From Mobula hypostoma (taxonomy: Eukaryota), in NCBI RefSeq assembly GCF_963921235.1, contig NC_086097.1:158846001-158910000 (forward strand): a DNA stretch of 64,000 nt. The letters are read 5' to 3'. Both the position numbers and the translations under genes were made by a program. The notes below the pieces were generated by a model. It was not told the DNA's origin, ran no database searches, and saw only the letters and a list, made by a program, of their open reading frames with translations. This document shows, piece by piece, positions 26,080 through 41,299 of the stretch; within the stretch, counting starts at the first letter, position 1; every line of letters begins with the position of its first letter.

Positions 26080-29000
26080 TATCAAAAACTTTAACTGGAA
26101 CAGATTGAGTGAATCAAGCTGATTAAGGCAGTCTTGAGGAGGACTTCATTGATTGCATCTGTAATAGCTCTCTTCAACAGCATGTATTGAACCTACAAGG
26201 GAACGTGCTACCTTAGATCTGGTCCTGTAATGAGGCAGATAAAATAAAGGAACTTACAGTTAGGGATCGGCTTAGAAAAAGTTATCACAGTATGATTAAA
26301 TATTTCATAGAAATAGAAGGTGCAATAATCGATCTAAAGCCTGTGCTTTATGCTTAAACAAGGGAGACTACAACAGGTTGTGGGACGAGTCAGGTGGTAT
26401 AGACTTGGGACCACATGCCATATGGTGGGACATTTAAGGAATAGTGAAAGATTTTTCAAAGAGATTTTTCACAGTGCTCATCAAAAGCATATTCCACTTA
26501 AAAGTTAGGACAGAAATTGTGTAGAGAGCCAGCCTTGAATAACTAAGGAAATACATGAAGACATCAAGCTAAAGCTCGTCCATACGAAGACAATGAGAAA
26601 CTGGAAGATAAGGAAAACTTTAAAAAGCAACATTGACCCACTGAGCAAGCAACAAAGGAAGGGACAACAGATTATTAACTAGCATAAAAAAACATAAAAG
26701 CTTCTGTAATTAACAGAAAAGGGTGTCTAAAGTGAAATTAGGTCCCTTGGAAGATAAGAAAGTAGAATTAATATTGGGTAAGGCAGAAGTGGCCAAGGCT
26801 CTGAATGAATGAATGACAGTCTTCACCGTGGAGAACATGTCTAACATCCAAAGAAAAATGTTACAAATGCAATGGGAGCTAAGGACCTCAATGCAATCAC
26901 TATCAAGAAAGAGGTAATTCTCAGTGAATTAGTGGTTCTAAAGGTGAATATATTCTCTGGTCCTTATGGACTGCACCCCAGGTATTGAAAGAAATTATAG
27001 TAGAGGCATCTGTGATAATTTATGAAAATTCTGCAGATTCTGGGCAGGTTGGTGGATTGGAAGACAGTGAATATCATGGTACTACTTTAAAAAGGATTAG
27101 GCAAAATGCAAAATACCAGTTAGTTTAATGTCTGTAGTCAGGAAAAATGCTACATTATGAAAGAGGTAGCTAGATATCTGGATGAAAAGGGTTCCTTGAG
27201 GGAGATGCAGCATGGATTTTGGAAGGGCAGGTCTTGTTTGACAAATTTACTGGAGCTCTTTGAGGGTATAATGAGCGCAGTGGACAGAGGCAAACAGGGG
27301 GGATAATGAATATCCAGATTTCCAGAAAGTGTTCATTAAGGTGCTGCACAGAAGACTTACCCATCAGATAAGGATGCATGGGGTTGGGGATAATGTATTA
27401 GCATGGATAGTGGATTGAGTAACCAATAGAAGGCCAGAGAGCTGGAATAAAAGGGTGTTTCTCTGGTTAGTAGTCAGTGCTGACGGGGGTGCTGCAGCAA
27501 TCGGTTCTGGGCCAGCAACCTTTCACAACATACAGGAGAGGACTGAGTGTGGCATATCTAAGTTTGCTAGTGACTCTGAATTGAGTTTCAAATAAATAGT
27601 GTAGTGGATGCAGAGAGATATACAGTTGATGTCAGAAGTTTACATACACCTTAGCCAAATACATTTAAACTCAGTTTTTCACAATTCCTGACATTTAATC
27701 CGAGAAAACATTCCCTGTCTTAGGTCAGTTAGGATCACTACTTTATTTTCAGAATGTGAAATGTCAGAATAATAGTAGAGAGAATGATTTATTTCAGCTT
27801 TTATTTCTTTCATCACTTTCCCAGTGGGTCAGAAGTTTACATACACTTTGTTAGTATTTGGTAGCATTGCCTTTAAATTGTTTAACTTGGGTCAAATGTT
27901 ATGGGTAGCCTTCCACAAGTTTCTCACAGTAAATTGCTGGAATTTTGTTCCATTCCTCCAGACAGAATTGGTGTAACTGAGTCAGGTTTGTAGGCCTCCT
28001 TGCTCGCACACGCTTTTTCAGTTCTTCCCACAAATTTTCTATCGGATTGAGGTTAGAAAATGATGTCAAGTCTGGTTCATCCTTGGGAGCAATTTCCAAA
28101 CGTCTGAAGGTACCACGTTCATCTGTACAAACAATAGTACATAAGTATAAACACCATGGGACCACACAGCTGTCATACCGCTCAGAAAGGAGATGCATTC
28201 TGTCTCCTAGAGATGAATATACTTCGACGCAAAAAGTGCAAATCAATCCCAGAACAACAGCAAAGGACCTTGTGAAGATGCTGGAGGAAACAGGTAGACA
28301 AGTATCTATATCGACAGTAAAACGAGTCTTATATCGACATAACCTGAAAGGCTGCTCAGCAAGGAAGAAGCCACTGCTCCAAAACCGCCATAAGAAAGCC
28401 ACACTACAGTTTGCAAGTGCACATGGGGACAAAGATCTTACTTTTCGGAGAAATGTCTTCTGGTCTGATGAAACAAAAATTGAACTGTTTGGCCATAATG
28501 ACCATTGTTATGCTTGGAGGAAAAAGGGTGAGGCTTGCAAACCGAAGAATACCATTCCAGCCGTGGCAGCATCAGGTTGTGGGGGTGCTTTGCTGCAGAG
28601 GGATGGGTGCACTTCACAAAATAGATGGCGTCATGAGGAAGGAAAATCATGTGGATATATTAAAGCAACATCTCAAGACATCAGCCAGGAAGTTAAAGCT
28701 CAGTCGCAAAAGGGTCTTCCAAATGGTCAATGACCCCAAGCATACTTCCAAAGTTGTGGCAAAATTGCTTAAGGACAACAAAGTCAAGGTATTAGAGTGG
28801 CCATCACAAAGCCCTGACCACAACCTGATAGAAAATTCGTGGGAAGAACTGAAAAAGCGTGTGCGAGCAAGGAGGCCTACAAACCTGACTCAGTTACGCC
28901 AGTTCTGTCTGGAGGAATGGAACAAAATTCCAGCAACTTACTGTGAGAAGCTTGTGGAAGGCTACCCATAACATTTGACCCAAGTTAAACAATTTAAAAG

Positions 29001-29420
29001 CAATGCTACCAAATACTAACAAAGTGTATATAAACCTCTGACCCACTGGGAAAGTGATGAATGAAATAAAAGCTGAAATAAATTATTCTCTCTACTATTA
29101 TTCTGACATTTCACATTCTTAAAATAAAGTAGTGATCCTAAGTGACCTAAGACAGGGAATGTTTTCTCGGATTAAATGTCAGGAATTGTGAAAAACTGAG
29201 TTTAAATGTATTTGGCTAAGGTGTATGTAAACTTCTGTCTTCAACTGTAGATAGATTAAGTGAGTCGGTAAGGGCCAGACAGATGAGTATAATATTCTAA
29301 ATGCAAAGTCATCAACTTTGGAAGGACAAAGAGAAGATCTTATTATTTAAATTGTGAGAGGTTCAGCATGTTGTTGTGCAGAGGGACTTGGAAGTACTGG
29401 TTCATGAATCATTAAAAGTT
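26080..29420 (+). mobile_element. Old, degraded CR1 ORF2 hosting the Tc1 insertion
   Basis: Decayed endonuclease and RT sequence (CATGGATTTTGGAAGGGCAGGTCTTGTTTGACAAATTTACTGGAG; CTAAGTTTGCTAGTGAC). It continues across the Tc1 TA site. Confidence 0.7.
27623..29247 (+). mobile_element. Tc1/mariner transposon of the Sleeping Beauty (salmonid Tc1) subfamily; rearranged, inactive
   Basis: TA at 27621-27622 and 29248-29249. Termini CAGTTGA(T/A)G..AGAAGTTTACATACACC. Frameshifted transposase from about 28067 (KSGSSLGAISKRLKVPRSSVQTIV...WSDETKIELFG...NDPKHTSK...WPSQSPD). Confidence 0.95.
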
Positions 29421-32078: not shown

Positions 32079-35000
32079 TAGAAACATAGAAAACCTACAG
32101 CACAATACAGGCCCTTCGGCCCACAATCCTATGCCAAACATGTACTTACTTTAGAAATTATCTTGGGTTACCCATAGCCCTCTATTTTTCGAAGCTCCAT
32201 GCACCTATCCAGGAGTCTCTTGAAAGACCCTATTGTATCCGCCTCCACCACTGTCACCGGCAGCCCATTCCACACACTCACCACTCTCTGCGTAAAAAAC
32301 TTACCCCTGACATCTCCTCTGTACCTACTTCGAAGCACCTTAAAACTGTGCCCTCTCATGTTAGCCACTTCAACCCTGGGAAAAAGCCTCTGGCTATCCA
32401 CACGATCAATTCCTCTCATCATCTTATACACCTCTATGAGGTCATCTCTCATCCTGTGCCGCTCCAAGGAGAAAAGGCCAAGTTCACTCAACCTATTGTA
32501 ATAAGGCAGGCAACATCTTTGTAAATCTCCTCTACACACTTTCTATAGTTTTCACATCCTTCCTGTAGTGAGGTGATCAGAACTGAGCACATTACTGCAA
32601 GGGGTCTGACCAGGGTGCTATATAGCCGTTACATTACCTCTCAGCTGTTAAACTCAATCCCACAGTTGATGAAGGCCAGTGCACCAAATGCCTTTTTAAC
32701 CACAGAGTCAATGTGCGCAGCAACTTTGAGTTTCCTATGGACTCGGACCCCAAGATCCCTCTGATCCTCCACACTGCCAAGAGTCTTACCATTAATACTA
32801 TATTCTGCCATCATATTTGACCTACCAAAATGAACCACTTCACACTTATCTGGGTTGAACTCCATCTGCCACTTCTTTGCCCAGTTTTGCATCCTAACAA
32901 TGTCCCACTGTAACCTCTGACAGCCCTCCATACTATCCACAACATCCCCAACCTTTGTGTCATCAGCAAATTTACTAACCCATCCCTCCACTTCCTCATC
33001 CAAGTCATTTATAAAAATCACAAAGAGAAGGGGTCCCAGAATAGATCCCTGAGGCACACCACTGGTCACTGACCTCCATGCAGAATATGATTCATCTACA
33101 ACCACCCTTTGCCTTCTATGAGCAAGCAATTCTGGATCCATAAAGCAAGGTCCCTTTGGATCCTATGCCTCCTTACTTTCTCAATAAGCCTTGCATGGAT
33201 ACCTTATGCACTGGGGCTCCACAGGGGACTGTCTTGTCTCCCTTTCTCTTCACCATTTACACCTCGGACTTCAACTACTGCACAGAGTCTTGTCATCTTC
33301 AGAGGTTTTCAGATGACTCTGCCATAGTTGGATGCATCAGCACGGGAGATGAGGCTGAGTACAGGGCTACGGTAGGAAACTTTGTCACATGGTCTGAGCA
33401 GAATTATTTGCAGCTTAATGTGAAAAAGACTAAGGAGCTGGTGGTAGACCTGAGGAGAGCTAAGGTACCAGTGACCCTTGTTTCCATCCAGGGGGTCAGT
33501 GTGGACATAGTGGAGGATTACAAATACCTGGGGATACGAATTGACAATAAACTGGACTGGTCAAAGAACACTGAGGCTGTCTACAAGAAGGGCCAGAGCC
33601 GTCTCTATTTCCTGAGGAGACTGAGGTCCATTAACATCTGCCGGACGATGCTGAAGATGTTCTACGAGTCTGTGGTGGCCAGTGCTATCATATTTGTTGT
33701 TGTGTGCTGGGGCAGCAGGCTGAGGGTGGCAGACACCAAACAGAATCAACAAACTCATTTGTAAGGCCAGTGATGTTGTGGGGATGGAACTGGACTCTCT
33801 CACGATGGTGTCTGAAAAGAAGATGCTGTCTAAGTTGCGTGCCATCTTGGACAATGTTTCTCATCCACTACATAATGTACTGGGTGGGCACAGGAGTACA
33901 TTCAGCCAGAGACTCATTCCACCGAGATGCAGCACAGAGCGTCATAGGAAGTCATTCCTGCCTGTGGCCATCAAACTTTACAACTCCTCCCTTGGAGGGT
34001 CAGACACCCTGAGCCGATAGACTGGTCCTGGACTTATTTCATAATTTACTGGCATAATTTACATATTACTATTTAACTATTTATGGTTCTATTACTATTT
34101 ATTATTTATGGAGCAACTGTAACGAAAACCAATTTCCCCCAGGATTAATGAAGTGTGATTATGACTATGACTATTTTCAAATGCCTTGCTGAAATCCATA
34201 GACACTACATCTACTGCTCTACCTTTTGAAACTTTCATAAGCTTTTCTTTTCTTCTTGACTAGATTTACAACAGCCTTTGTACACCACGGTTCCTGTAAC
34301 CTACCATCCTTTCTCTGTCTCATTGGAATGTACCTATGCAGAATGCCATGCAGATATTCCCTGAAAATTTACCACATTTCTGCCGTACATCTCCCTGAGA
34401 ACGTCTGCTTCCAATTTATGCTTCCAAGTTCCTGCTTGATGGCTTCATATTTCACCTTACTCCAATTAAACACTTTCCTAACTTGTCTGTCCCTATCCCT
34501 CTCCAATGCTATTGTAAAGGAGACAGAATTGTGATCACTATCTCCAAAATGCTTTCCCACTGACAGGCCTGACACCTGACCAGGTTCATTTCCCAATACC
34601 AGATTGAGTACAGCCTCTTCTCTTGTAGGCTTATCTACATATTGTGTCAGGAAACCTTCCTGAACACATCTAATAAACTCCACCCCATCTAAACCCCTTG
34701 CTCTAGGGAGATGCCAATCAATATTTGGGTAATTAAAATCTCCCACCACTACAACCCAGTTAATATTACACCTTTCTAGAATCTGTCTCCCTGTCTGCTC
34801 CTTGATGTCCCTGTTATTATTGGGTGGTCTATAAAAAACACCCAGTAGAGTTATTAATCCCCTTCCTGTTTCTAACTTACACCCACAGAGACTCAGTTGA
34901 CAATCCCTCCATGTCTTCCTCCTTTTCTGCAGCCGTGACACTATCTCTCATCAACAGTGCTACGCCCCCACTTCTTTTGCCTCCCTCTCTGTCCTTTCTG

Positions 35001-36135
35001 AAACATCTAAAGTCTGGCACTTCTAAGTAACCATACCCGTCCCCAAGCCATCCAAGTCTCTGTAATGGCTCAACATCATAGCTCCAAGTACTGATCCACG
35101 TTCTAAGCTCATCCACTTTGTTCATAATACTCCTTGCATGAAAATAAACACACCTGAAATCATCGGTCTGAGTACATCCATTCTCTATCACCTACCTATC
35201 CTCCTACTCACACCGTCTCCAAGCTTTCTCTATTTGTGAGCCAACTGCCCCTTCCTCTATCTCTTCAGTTAGGTTCCTTCCCCCCAGCAATTCTAGTTTA
35301 AACTCTCCCCAATAGCCTTAGCAAACCTCCCTGCCAGAATATTGGTCCCACTTGGATTCAAGTGCAACCTGTCCTTTTTGTACAGGTCACGCCTGTCCCA
35401 AAAGAGGTCCCAGTGATCCGGAAATCTGAATCCCTGCCCCCGTGCTCCAATTCCTCAGCCACAAAGTTATCCTCCACTTCACTGTATTCCCATACTCACT
35501 GTCACGTGGCACAGGCAGTAATCTTGAGATTACTACCTTTGAGGTCCTGCTTTTCAACTTCCTTCCTAACTCCCTGTAGTCTGTTTTCAGGACCTCCTCC
35601 CTTTTCCTAGCTATGTCGTTGGTACCAATATGTATCACGACCTCTGGCTGTTCACCTTCCCACTTCAAGATATCGTGAACACGATCAGAAACATCCCGGA
35701 CCCTGGCACCTGGAAGGCAAACTACCATCCGTGTTTCTTTCCTGCGTCCACAGAATCACCTGTCTGACCCCTTAACTATAGAGTCCCCTACTACTGCTGC
35801 CTTCTTCCTTTCTTTACCCTTCTGAGCCACAGGGCCAGACTCTGTGCTAGAACCATGGCCACTGTTGCTTCCTCAAGGGAGGCCGTCTCCCCCAGTAGTA
35901 CTCAAACAGGAGTACTTATTGTTAAGGGGGACAGCCACAGGGGATACTCTCTGGTATCTGACTCTTGCCTTTCCCTGTTCTGACTGTACCCACTTATCTG
36001 TCTCCCGAGGCCCCGGTGTGACGACTTGCCTATAGCTCCTCTCTGTCACCTCCTCACTTTCCCTGACCAGACAAAAGTCATGGAGCTGCATCTCCAGTTC
36101 CCTAACCCGGTCCCTAAGGAGCTGCAGCTCGATCT
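32079..36135 (-). mobile_element. CR1 LINE spanning ORF1 to the 3' tail, with an internal deletion and a nested Rex1/Babar copy
   Basis: ORF1 esterase CLPGARVRDV...IHIGTNDI (35387-35728). Endonuclease FYRPPN, VGDFNYP and GDSDHN (34369-35191). Deletion junction near 34226. RT GVPQGSILGPLLF and FADDTKV (32641-33141). Tail TAGAAACATAGAAA. Confidence 0.92.
33208..34174 (+). mobile_element. Rex1/Babar LINE 3' portion nested in CR1
   Basis: TGAPQGTVLSPFLFTIYTSD...FSDDSAIVG...YKYLG with an ATGACT-repeat tail. The host CR1 sequence ACCTTAT|CAAATGCC is split. Confidence 0.92.
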
Positions 36136-37516
36136 CTTACCTCTCAACCTGAGAGAGCACAGGGCTGCAGTTTTCTTCACAGCAAATGACAACATCCCTG
36201 AGAATTTCGTACCTCACTACTAAACTGGGGTGTTAGTTGAATTCTTTGTCCTTATATCTCTTGTATGTGAATGCAGTCAACAATTGTTTGACTCATATAG
36301 TCTTCCATGCATTTTACAAGAAACATAGACAGATGTATTCAGGTACTTAAGTTTTTACTGCAAGATAATTAATCTTTTTAAGGATCAAACAGAAACTATA
36401 GTGAATTACTGATAGGCTCGCTAACAGATTTGCTTCCCGGACAAGCAGCTTTTGACATTTTTTATCATGTTGAAAATAATTCACTCTTTTGGGTTCCTAG
36501 TACCGAGAAGAAACAAACAGACTTTATCAAGACATTATTTTGCTTTCCCCAAAGTCTGTTCTTTGCCCTAATATATAATTACTGAACTAAAAATCCATTT
36601 TTGGTTTTCTTTTGCCCAAGACCAACCAATATGACCCCACTATTCGAAATGATATTGCCCACTACTGGTCTTAAAGTTTCAGTCATGGAGGCAGATTGCC
36701 CATTAAAGTTCAAGCTTCCTGCTAGTAGCACTTGTAATTCTAAATGCAATGGTGCAGGGCCCTGATTAACGTGCCATTTCACACATGGAAGAATTCCTTT
36801 GCTTGTATCCTTAATAGCTTCACATCCAGTGAATTACTTTTCAGATGTAATTACCATTGTTCTGGAGGCAAGTCAAGCAACTACTTGCACACATCAAATG
36901 TCAATAAAAGGGGGAAAAGACATAATGATGTTAAAAATCAGAAATAAAAGCAGTAATGGGTGGAAGTATCCAGTTACATTTCAGTTTTAATGGTTTAGCT
37001 TATAAAAACAAGCACAGTTTGCTCTTGATTTACTATGTTCAGTACTTACAGGGTGGCGATTGACCAGTTTCTGACTTTTCCAACCATTCGCAGCAACTCG
37101 TAACCCCATTGAAAGCTATACTAACCATTGTCTGACTTTTTTGTATAACAAAGGGTTTATCAGGAGCTTAATCCCTTTGTTATCCAAAAGCCACCGAAAT
37201 TCTGTTATGGGAGGGAATGCAGTGCTATTATCATATTTGCATCCATTTGAACCAGCAGACAGAAATCAGTTTAATATGGCCCAAAAAATGATAAATATGA
37301 CAACAGCACATACTCAACACTGCATTTAAGTGTCATTATAGATCATTTAATGAAATTGACTTTGCTATCAAATTAGATAATGACAGCACCAATTGTCACA
37401 TTGACAGTTATAGTGCTGTCAAATACAAGGTTTCTATGTATGTAAAATAAAAGTAGAAAGTTTGCTTCTGCCAGCAGCTGTCCTGCCTGCATCTAAATGA
37501 CAATTAGATGAGTTAC

Positions 37517-37796: not shown

Positions 37797-37994
37797 TGTT
37801 GTGTATGTGGCCTGGTTACACAACAATACTATTAATAAAAATGCTGGAGATGGGAGCTAAGGTTCATGGTTATTTACTGGCAGAAACCGAACTCAGCACA
37901 CATGTACAAATCAATATGCGCCTAATACCGCATTCAACGACGTGTTACTAAAACATAAAGTAGACCCTTATTATACTGTAAGCTCTACGGTACA
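37797..37994 (-). repeat. 3' LTR (198 bp)
   Basis: TGTTGTGTATGTGGCCTGG...ACGGTACA. About 16 substitutions versus the other LTR by manual count, and it lacks a 25-bp internal tandem duplication. Confidence 0.95.
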
Positions 37995-38007
37995 CTCCTC
38001 CCCTTTT
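37995..38007 (-). promoter_or_regulatory. Polypurine tract
   Basis: Minus strand AAAAGGGGAGGAG directly abuts the 3' LTR. Confidence 0.9.
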
Positions 38008-38172
38008 ATTTTAATAGTGTATCAACTGTTTTATTACTGGGGCACTATGCTAACAAATATGTTCACCCTTAACATACAAACACCTACCATTTGTTTACTT
38101 AGTAACTTAATACAAACGTTTATAATATCAAATTATAACAAGCCTTTTTTTTACTTTTGTTCTAAGACCTAT

Positions 38173-38228
38173 TTATAACTCAAGTCTCTGGGTGGGGGGG
38201 TCTTCTCTGCCTCTCCGGGTAATGTCTG
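38173..38228 (-). pseudogene. Residual C-terminal tail of gypsy Pol/integrase
   Basis: Reads RHYPERQRRPP..(frameshift)..QRLEL-stop, resembling the RxYPxRxRxPP tail typical of Mag-like integrases. Confidence 0.6.
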
Positions 38229-38336
38229 TCAATAAACTTGTTTGTCTTAATACAGATTTCCATATAAAAGTCATGAAAAGTTGACCTCTGAGCATAGGAA
38301 GTTAAGAAGATGTGCGCCTCCGACTTGCTAAGAGTT

Positions 38337-39268
38337 CTAGGCAGCAGATTGCCTCCGTATAATGAAGACTCCTCTGTGCAGCTGCCCTAGATATATACAC
38401 ATCTTTGTGCTATCACTTATCTTCCTTACCATATCTCATTTGTTCCATCTGAGTTGATTACACAGCCAATCTTCGTATTCTCCTTAGATTCCAAATAGAT
38501 AGCTTGACCTTTATGATACCATCTCTTATTGTAATATAACTTTCCATCTTCTATTTGTGCTTCATATCTTTGTGCTGGTGTTTCAGCAGGAGTGCTGGGA
38601 AGATGCTCAGGAGAAGACGGAGTTGCTGGTCTTTTCAGAGATTTAAACTTATTGCGAGTTTGCAGATCTTCCATTATCTGTTCATCTGTTAACAAGTAAT
38701 TTAACTGTGCAGGTGCAGGTTTTTATCTTTTGTCTGTAATTGGAACAGGGTCATTAGGTCCCCTTCTTAGTTTCCTAGTCATTATTAACTTTACCTCCAT
38801 AGAATCTCCTGTGAGTTCCATTGTTAGCCTCTCTTTCTCAATCATCTTTTTATTTTCTTCTAACTCAATCTTTTTATCTTCAAATTCCTTCACTGCTGCT
38901 TTCTTCTCTTTAATATACCTTTCCACCTATTCTGTCTCCAGTTGCAGAAAAAGCCCTGCATTTTGTATTCTTTCCTTGTATTGTTGATCTAGTTTCTTCA
39001 TCCTTTCCTGATACTCCTACAAAGAGCCTTCCTGTAACTGCTGTAGCTGTCTTTTCAGAGATGTCAATTTCTCCTGGTGCATCTGCTCTTTTACTTCCAG
39101 GTAGTCTTCATCATTCTGCTTATTGGCAATATCTGTCTCCCTTGCATCCTCTGTATTTTCATCCGAGTCGCAGCCACGGATACTGCATTCGTCCTCATCG
39201 TTGACGCTGTCTAGCTCCTCCTCGTTGTTGTAACAGTCGACAATGGGTGAGAGGAGAGCTGTGGACAT
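38337..39268 (-). pseudogene. SUDS3: Intronless SDS3 (Sin3 histone deacetylase corepressor subunit) retrocopy inside the LTR element
   Basis: Colinear from ATG (39268) to TAG (38337): MSTALLSP...[135 protein letters not shown]. These match vertebrate SUDS3 as I recall it. Stops at 39017-39019, 38927-38929 and 38723-38725; 1-nt frameshift near 38428. Confidence 0.95.
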
Positions 39269-40395
39269 CTTCCCTGCCGAGCTGCCCTCCTTTGTTGACA
39301 CATCTAGTGCCTTGATGGTGTGCCAATCCAACTGGATTTTACTGAGCCGTTCATGTCCCAGCAACGGTGGTCCTCCATTTTTCAGTACATAGAGGTTCAG
39401 CTGCTGTGTTTTGTCTCCGTAGGTCACTGTCACTTTACTTTTACCTTTGGGATGCACCTTCTGTCCTGTGTAAGTCTTTAGCAGTAGTTTAGTACATTTC
39501 AGAGGTATATAAGAAGACAGTTGTTTGTAGTCATGTACAAAGATCACTGTTAAAGCTGAGCCTGTGTCCAACTCCATTTTCAGTCTCACGCCTGCCACTT
39601 GTGGAGTGATCCATATTACTCTTCGATCATCTGTCTCTTTCACGCTGTGAAGTTGCAGACAAGACAATTCACTTCCGTCTGAGTCATTTTCATCAGAACT
39701 GCTTTCTTCCATGTTGTGTGCATTGTTGTGTTTTCCTTTCTGGCGTTTCTTGTTTCTCTGTATTCTTGTTCCTTCTTCTGCTGTTTACTAGCTTTGCATA
39801 CTCTGCCAATGTGGCCCTGTTTGCCACAGTTTCTGCATTCTTTGTCTTTAAACCAACAGTTATCTGGATCATGTGACCTGTTCCCATGCTGGTAACATTT
39901 CTGTCCTTCATTTCTGTTCAGTGACATTTTATTTGTGGCATATTCCAGAGATTTTTGTTGTATCTCAGAAGCACCCTGTACTGCTGTTGCCGTTGATATT
40001 GCAATGTTTAGCGCTTTTTCAAATGTAAGGTCTCTTTCACACAGAAGCTTCTTCTGTGTGGTTTCACAGTGCATGCCACACACCAACCTGTCCCTCAATG
40101 CGTCCGATAGACCTGCTCCAAATTGACGATGTTCTGATAGTTTGCACAATTCAGCACAATATTGAGAAATGCTTTCATTTTTTGCTCTGATTCTGACTGT
40201 GAAATTTAAATCCTTCAGCAATGACCAGTGGTTTGGGGTTTAAATGCTGTTGGAGAGTGTCTACTATTTGCTTGAACGTTTTATCAGCTGGCTTTTCAGG
40301 GGTGAACAAGCTCTGTAGCAGGCCGTATGTTTTTGCTCCCATAAGACGCTGGCTTTCTTTTCATCCTTAACACCACTAACCTCACAATATAACTC

Positions 40396-40606
40396 ATCAA
40401 AGTTGCTGGTGAACGCAGCAGGCCAGGCAGCATCTATAGGAAGAGGCGCAGTCGACGTTTCAGGCCGAGACCCTAGTCCTGACGAAGGGTCTCGGCCTGA
40501 AACGTCGACTGCGCCTCTTCCTATAGATGCTGCCTGGCCTGCTGCGTTCACCAGCAACTTTGATGTGTGTTGCTTGAATTTCCAGCATCTGCAGAATTCC
40601 TGTTGT
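40396..40606 (+). mobile_element. Palindromic Penelope-like mini-insertion (inverted pseudo-LTR) with a 14-bp TSD
   Basis: TCACAATATAACTC at 40382-40395 and 40607-40620. Perfect 80-bp inverted arms at 40395-40474 and 40486-40565. Confidence 0.92.
40475..40510 (+). ncRNA. Minimal type I hammerhead ribozyme motif of a Penelope-like element
   Basis: Stem I AGTC/GACT, core CTGACGA, stem II AGG-gtctcgg-CCT, GAAA, palindromic ACGT helix III, and cleavage triplet GTC. Confidence 0.8.
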
Positions 40607-41062
40607 TCACAATATAACTCCACTCTTTCAATGTAAGTTGCCCAGTCTTCAATGGCACTATCAAATGCTGTAATGGTTCCAATCATCACCATCTTTTTTA
40701 TGTTAATTAAGCCCCGTTCCCCCCTTATTTTCCTTTTTTGACTCGTGTCCCATTTGCTAGCACCACGAGCGCACTCTGTCTAGATGTGTGTGTGCCGCTC
40801 CTTTTTATCTCCCTTCTGGAGCAGGCAGACCCTCAGTCCCTGGGGGTCAGCGCCGGCCGTGGTCTCGGCTGGACGTGCTGTGGCTCCGACTGTGTCTCTT
40901 GGTCTCCCAACGTTCCCGACCCTGGCTGTGCTCCCGCTTCCTTTCAGACTCGCAGCCTCGCTCTGCCTCCTTCTCTCGCTCCTTGGCTCGTTCCTTGCAC
41001 TCTTCTTCTGAGTGTCGTTATCAATTAAAACACGGTGTTCCGATACGATGTAGGTTCATTAA

Positions 41063-41073
41063 CCTCGTCGCCA
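41063..41073 (-). promoter_or_regulatory. Primer-binding site complementary to the 3' end of tRNA-Ser(GCU)
   Basis: Minus strand TGGCGACGAGG, 3 nt inside the 5' LTR. Vertebrate tRNA-Ser(GCU) ends ...CCUCGUCGCCA. Confidence 0.85.
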
Positions 41074-41076
41074 ATG

Positions 41077-41299
41077 TGTTGTGTATGTGGCCTGGCTACA
41101 CAACAATGCTATTAATAAGAACACTGGAGACGGGAGCTAAGGTTCATGGTTCTTTACTGGCAGAAACCGAACTCGGCACACAAGTACAGATCAATATGCG
41201 CCTAATTGCGCATGCGCAATATGTGCCTAATAGCGCATTCAACAATGTGTTACTAAAACATAAAGTAGTCCCTTATTATACTGTAGGCTATACGGTACA
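41077..41299 (-). repeat. 5' LTR (223 bp)
   Basis: Direct repeat of 37797-37994 plus the extra 25-bp unit AATATGCGCCTAATTGCGCATGCGC. Confidence 0.95.

Follow-up and report, generated by a model that had tools for sequence, protein, structure and literature searches.

A 3.5 kb Ty3/Gypsy LTR element on the minus strand (41299-37797) carries a joint between an aspartic protease (PR) and the coding sequence of SUDS3 in the window, the 64,000-nt stretch of the Mobula hypostoma genome that was analysed (NC_086097.1, positions 158,846,001 to 158,910,000). With a probability of about 0.72, this element is a decayed copy from a non-autonomous Ty3/Gypsy family in which spliced SUDS3 replaced reverse transcriptase (RT), RNase H (RH) and integrase (IN), likely by template switching, with the SUDS3 sequence likely carried as passenger cargo and the copying likely performed by the enzymes of a parent family.

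The element is bounded by a 5' LTR (41077-41299, TG...CA) and a 3' LTR (37797-37994), which are direct repeats of each other with 17 differences over 202 aligned nt, and by a 5-bp target duplication in which four of the five bases match (41304-41300 and 37796-37792). All of the following features lie on the minus strand unless noted. A primer-binding site beginning TGGCG (41063-41073) was located directly behind the 5' LTR and is followed by gag (39838-40692), which was recognised by homology to Gypsy polyprotein P0123 and by anchor spacings and is broken by private indels and an insertion. The insertion (40396-40606, no strand assigned) was a later 177-nt near-perfect hairpin repeat, identified by its inverted repeat and a 14-nt duplication at 40620 and 40395, and was absent from that gag position in 79 of 101 copies, which had the modal spacing. 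Copies of the hairpin repeat at other loci (e.g. L203:530-663) are 99% alike, and it is therefore younger than the LTR burst. A CCHC zinc knuckle and linker (39713-39837, zf-CCHC E 0.007) precede the protease (39288-39712, DTG at 39568-39560), which was assigned from its open frame, protein homology (81% to a Gypsy Gag-PR-RT protein) and a Pfam gag-asp_proteas match that was weak and below the cut-off (E 0.007). The SUDS3-derived stretch (39290-38224 overall) includes an intronless coding copy identical to the host at 875 of 932 nt (38337-39268) and a captured 3' UTR of the short class, reaching +113 (38231-38336). The remaining 3' region (37995-38223) ends in a polypurine tract (38007-37995) and is common to RT-bearing copies. 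Elsewhere in the window were a 439-nt inverted repeat, 96% complementary with arms 757 nt apart and possibly a DNA transposon (27618-29252), and minus-strand remnants judged by eye to be a LINE-like ORF1 and endonuclease (34369-36136). No tRNA gene was found in the window.

Host SUDS3 was located by its splice-border pattern, which gave four matches including one intron-bearing gene of 12 exons over ~59 kb on contig C78, and none of its 11 introns was present in the element. Intron 7 of the host gene has AT-AC ends of the minor-spliceosome type, and the 319-residue product, SDS3, is identical to a devil-ray SDS3 (319/319). The captured spliced sequence starts 21 nt upstream of the start codon and ends either 113 or 342 nt downstream of the stop, with 59 copies in the short and 48 in the long 3' UTR class. 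Both joints of the copy in the window showed an exact 7-nt identity between the parent element and the host mRNA, one between parent pol and the SUDS3 5' UTR (39281-39287) and one between the host 3' UTR and the final codons of integrase (38224-38230), and these microhomologies argue for template switching, while the 3' joint of the long class had only 2-3 nt of microhomology. Simple deletion cannot derive either 3' class from the other, and forming the short class takes a second switch, this time onto parent RNA.

RT-bearing parent copies had their LTRs, gag, protease and 3' region in common with the hybrids at ~90%, and their PR-RT-RH-IN order, TG..CA LTRs and 5-bp target duplication place them in Ty3/Gypsy, of which the hybrid is a derivative without RT-RH-IN. 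The preliminary description had SUDS3 occupying the slot of RT alone, but the replaced segment of ~2.75 kb proved to take in RT, RNase H and almost the whole of integrase. Protease matches picked solely for not continuing into RT carried SUDS3 in 20/20 cases, and protease lay directly upstream of SUDS3 in 122 of 128 copies. Among the RT-bearing parent copies (L177-L221), 13 of 18 had a stop at one protease codon with no decay product of the opposite strand, a hint that the parent family includes a defective subfamily.

The likely sequence of events behind these joints begins with SUDS3 mRNA being co-packaged in a particle with element RNA, after which RT would have switched onto the SUDS3 mRNA at the end of the protease and returned to the element within the final integrase codons. 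The product, retaining all cis signals, was likely multiplied by the enzymes of the RT-bearing parent, and later switches likely gave the short-UTR form and a form carrying a piece of RNF213, with all copies decaying afterwards.

An open reading frame joining the DTG protease to the SUDS3 start was confirmed as a stop-free minus-strand frame (39784-39017), and the same joint was in frame in 112 of 124 measured copies, which makes it a trait of the family. The stop closing this frame (39019-39017) is premature, falling at SDS3 codon 84, and was present in 6 of 132 copies. The SUDS3 coding sequence had been described as complete with its own stop, and the natural stop is indeed present (38339-38337), although the coding sequence is only near-complete, with three internal stops (39019, 38929, 38725), a frameshift near 38430, a private 3-nt gap and a family-wide 24-nt deletion at 38868/38867. 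With its three stops and frameshift, the locus does not hold the intact, constrained ORF of a functional retrogene. Slippage at a CA run near 39715 had been put forward as the origin of the break between gag and protease and was ruled out, since the break maps to ~39760-39780, 50 nt away, and is private; the reading frame across that interval is kept in 103 of 121 chimeric copies and in all 25 RT-bearing ones. A programmed gag-pol frameshift was likewise ruled out, as the parent and its relatives use one frame. Ty3/Gypsy elements that encode gag-pol as one frame (proteins P0122 and P0123, named K02A2.6-like in fish), a 'Mag-like' type, have Gag, CCHC and PR in one frame as here, and differ in having pol where the hybrid is without RT, RH and IN.

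The proposal that the ancestor encoded a single Gag-PR-SDS3 frame was supported by the copies, the family having multiplied as one open polyprotein frame. Modal spacings from the gag start to the SUDS3 start were each divisible by three and matched those of the parent as far as the protease end, the last of them, from protease to SUDS3 start, being the one in frame at 112 of 124 joints. The family consists of many copies, and no stop or frameshift was shared anywhere in the long frame in any subfamily. Only the joint needed luck, because the parent and related elements already encode gag-pol in one frame, and the earlier caution that an in-frame joint is weak evidence, arising one time in three by chance, was upheld, the frame being set by the position of the 7-nt microhomology. 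Stops were spread over 86 SDS3 codons, the commonest at a CpG codon (37/131 copies), and at one protease CpG codon, considered as a candidate mark of a subfamily, 37 of 85 hybrids had a stop, with no linkage to six subclade markers. None of 94 copies is open from gag to the SDS3 end today. During the burst the family probably produced a Gag-PR-SDS3 protein, which appears to have given no measurable advantage.

The junction motif occurred 221 times genome-wide (at most one mismatch) and that of the RT-bearing parent 190 times, against 0 and 1 for controls. As the motifs detected 76 of 122 sampled hybrid and 22 of 25 sampled parent copies, rough totals of 355 hybrids and at least 215 parents were derived. 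From 183 fetched loci 133 unique copies were kept, 112 of them spanning the CDS, and most were chosen by likeness to the host protein, a choice favouring open frames. LTR-LTR distances were 0.09-0.10 in both hybrids (55) and parents (6), and diversity was 0.090 within hybrids, 0.087 within parents and 0.093 between the groups; the two families are of equal age. A tree restricted to 103 copies within 40 nt of the modal length was a star with terminal branches of 4.7%, and the 5-bp target duplication was exact in 36 of 55 copies. Searches for SLU7 and the MIR domain, run as controls for other amplified cargo, returned exon-like matches only (5 and 18, respectively).

Contigs bridging the protease-SUDS3 joint were present in runs of three organisms, the RNA status of these runs being guessed. 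SDS3-like gene models with the 24-nt deletion are annotated in two Mobula species, one of which is perhaps not independent of this genome. A contig of run X18 (L112:3106-3725) joins protease to host-type SDS3 retaining the 24 nt and represents either a hybrid of organism E that predates the deletion or a mosaic created by assembly. In run X15, again of guessed RNA status, a contig (L112:2700-3334) runs from the gag end straight into SDS3 pieces with the protease left out, and its depth of 2189 far exceeds that of the host-type contigs (about 104-138).

A third subfamily had SDS3 cut near codon 230 with an antisense RNF213 piece attached (L232:3800-4600 and 34 further copies), and numbered at least 35 unique copies with 40 of 150 candidates scored. 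Its frame stops 42 codons past the cut and is followed by a long tail, and a 57-nt in-frame deletion was common to 8 of the 35 copies. The coiled-coil and Sin3-binding segments were kept in all three subfamilies, while the RNF213 subfamily is without the SDS3 C-terminus, which holds the capped Tudor domain described in the portion of PMC8800102 drawn on here. Capture was thus recurrent and promiscuous.

Changes private to single copies amounted to 28.8 replacement (stops included) and 11.0 silent per copy, a pN/pS of 0.68 that was unchanged in 25 copies chosen by protease alone and that fits a transition-biased neutral expectation (neutral ratio 2.6:1); the private decay of SDS3 is neutral. 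Host and family differ at 15 sites, three replacement and twelve silent, and this raw ratio was ruled out as proof of purifying selection since most silent changes fell on the host branch. Polarising was done with host-type contigs of organism E, which may be mosaics. These contigs have the family letter at codons 33, 35, 61, 92, 233, 253 and 265, which therefore changed on the host branch, and the host letter at codon 31 and all three replacement sites; codons 268 (element) and 272 (host) were assigned by inference from contig difference counts, with codons 3 and 7 left unassigned. Seven of the twelve silent differences were placed on the host branch, or eight with the one inferred, so that the element (post-capture) branch carries three replacement and one to four silent changes, a comparison of low power at only 4-7 substitutions in all. 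Neutral probabilities for the replacement to silent counts were 0.73 (3:1), 0.21 (3:3) and 0.04 (3:5), the fit weakening to between 0.21 and 0.04 if the two unassigned sites and the inferred one all belong to the element branch. A host-like constraint (omega 0.05) had a probability of 0.006-0.024, and the counts were also compatible with moderate purifying selection (omega 0.2-0.5). The three element replacements fall on residues kept in 103/104, 117/117 and 115/117 aligned homologues.

The 24-nt deletion was found in 121 of 122 copies, the single exception being a poor alignment, and takes out SDS3 residues 138-145, which are present in 111/111 homologues and lie within the stretch matching PDB 4ZQA, which we take to be the dimerisation coil. 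Short direct repeats flank the deletion, a structure that would be expected of RT slippage. Chance alone often preserves the frame, as seen in 29 of 53 private deletions and 44-51% of direct-repeat pairs. That both shared deletions (24 and 57 nt) are in frame did not differ significantly from nulls of 44-55% and was rejected as proof of selection. A dN/dS near 1 on the post-capture branch, named beforehand as evidence against a captured function, is roughly what was found, at low power, with three replacements and an eight-residue deletion against one to four silent changes. The suggestion that the captured SDS3 titrates or retargets Sin3-HDAC repression went unsupported by these neutral-like changes.

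Several observations count against the passenger reading. No frame break is shared and both shared SDS3 deletions are in frame, at equal motif stringency the hybrids are no fewer than the parent copies (221 vs 190), and the truncated subfamily retains the coiled-coil and Sin3-binding parts. Together with the in-frame joint, these would fit an unlikely scenario in which particles carry and release a dimerisation-altered SDS3, weakening Sin3-HDAC and fuelling a burst of several hundred copies. SDS3 would then be packaged at one per Gag or overproduced, and once freed by the protease would sequester or misdirect Sin3-HDAC. Sds3 has been implicated in pericentric heterochromatin in the portion of PMC8800102 cited, and a deletion in the dimerisation helix could suit a dominant negative. 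The post-capture replacements at near-invariant residues, the low probability of host-like constraint and the frequency of in-frame deletions by chance all speak against such a weapon, as do a protease release site that is putative and the lack of any open copy among the 94; a benefit in trans would moreover serve parent and hybrid equally and need not favour the carriers. For the passenger reading, copies that arose in a star-like burst had little time in which to accumulate shared damage, and non-autonomous elements often outgrow their parents according to the cited part of Tan et al. 2016 (PMC5131818). Help at the level of RNA, ranked somewhat lower and also doubtful, would have the frame read to the SDS3 stop, shortening the untranslated tail and sparing the RNA, or piRNAs directed against host SUDS3. 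An open frame with no sign of protein constraint fits this idea, and Drosophila telomeric elements with silencing-gene fragments have higher copy number and more host-gene piRNAs in the account available from PMC13534243, but the RNF213 subfamily reached its copy number despite an early stop and long tail, and host SDS3 shows no amino-acid change from the devil-ray protein.

Retention by the host of one or a few copies as an SDS3 retrogene or fusion gene is improbable. The SDS3 frame was without stop or frameshift in 4 of 112 full-span copies, deletion-bearing SDS3-like proteins are annotated in the two Mobula species, and one organism E contig joins protease to host-type SDS3; against this, with about 2-4 breaks per copy a few open frames are to be expected, sampling by host-protein likeness favours those that are open, and the contig may be an assembly mosaic. 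Hardly credible is an origin from independent LINE-made processed pseudogenes landing in LTR elements, or from an assembly artefact. A 2026 preprint, in the part cited, links vertebrate retrocopies to non-LTR elements, with SUDS3 a top parent in cartilaginous fishes (10.64898/2026.06.26.734816), but the copies have one common 5' joint and deletion, pol is replaced and not interrupted, and microhomologies, LTR-type target duplications and copies 9% apart on dozens of contigs were observed; independent LINE pseudogenes are refuted by the joints common to the copies.

LTR-mediated retrocopies with the same anatomy and secondary spread are described in the part of Tan et al. 2016 (PMC5131818) used here. 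There, as in the SUDS3 element, mRNA replaces part of the internal ORF with both LTRs retained, several host genes may occur in one element, non-autonomous secondary spread follows, and joint microsimilarity has a median of 6 bp against 7 in the SUDS3 element, which with its intron loss, internal-ORF replacement, joint microsimilarity and secondary spread belongs to this class. It is unlike the cases in that part of the paper (PMC5131818) in its near-full CDS with UTR ends, in cargo in frame with Gag-PR that encodes a chromatin repressor, and in its hundreds of copies compared with 1-5 for maize Bs1 as cited there. The crocodilian ERVs with KIT-ligand or nectin3, as far as the cited part of PMC4299795 goes, are likewise amplified vertebrate LTR elements with a host ORF and shared in-frame indels, but are retroviral, with 6-9 copies and separate ORFs that are intact and under purifying selection amid decayed viral genes, whereas SDS3 in the ray element decays like its flanks. 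Drosophila telomeric elements with piRNA-pathway fragments (PMC13534243, in part) are similarly abundant and carry a piece of a silencing gene, but are non-LTR elements whose non-coding fragments act via piRNAs and record repeated capture from one pathway, in contrast to one SUDS3 capture with later cargo unrelated to silencing. Host sequence inside a transposon frame, as here, is also covered in the cited part of Abrusan et al. 2013 (PMC3597677), where selection was reported in 37% of 51 cases; none was detectable in the SUDS3 element. Our literature searches found no paper naming this SUDS3-carrying element or its LTR vehicle.

The element is best read as an LTR-mediated retrocopy that multiplied to an unusual degree with SUDS3 as passenger cargo. 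Passenger or not, a single event that left hundreds of SUDS3 copies is an extreme example of gene capture by an LTR element. A fusion protein that had in fact lifted silencing would count among the rare chromatin factors encoded by vertebrate transposons. The copies mislead annotation, appearing as SDS3-like gene models. In cartilaginous fishes SUDS3 ranks as one of the leading retrocopy parents, credited to non-LTR elements in the part of the preprint cited (10.64898/2026.06.26.734816), and the element likely explains that rank, a caution that retrocopy counts need not mean many LINE events or selection for gene function.
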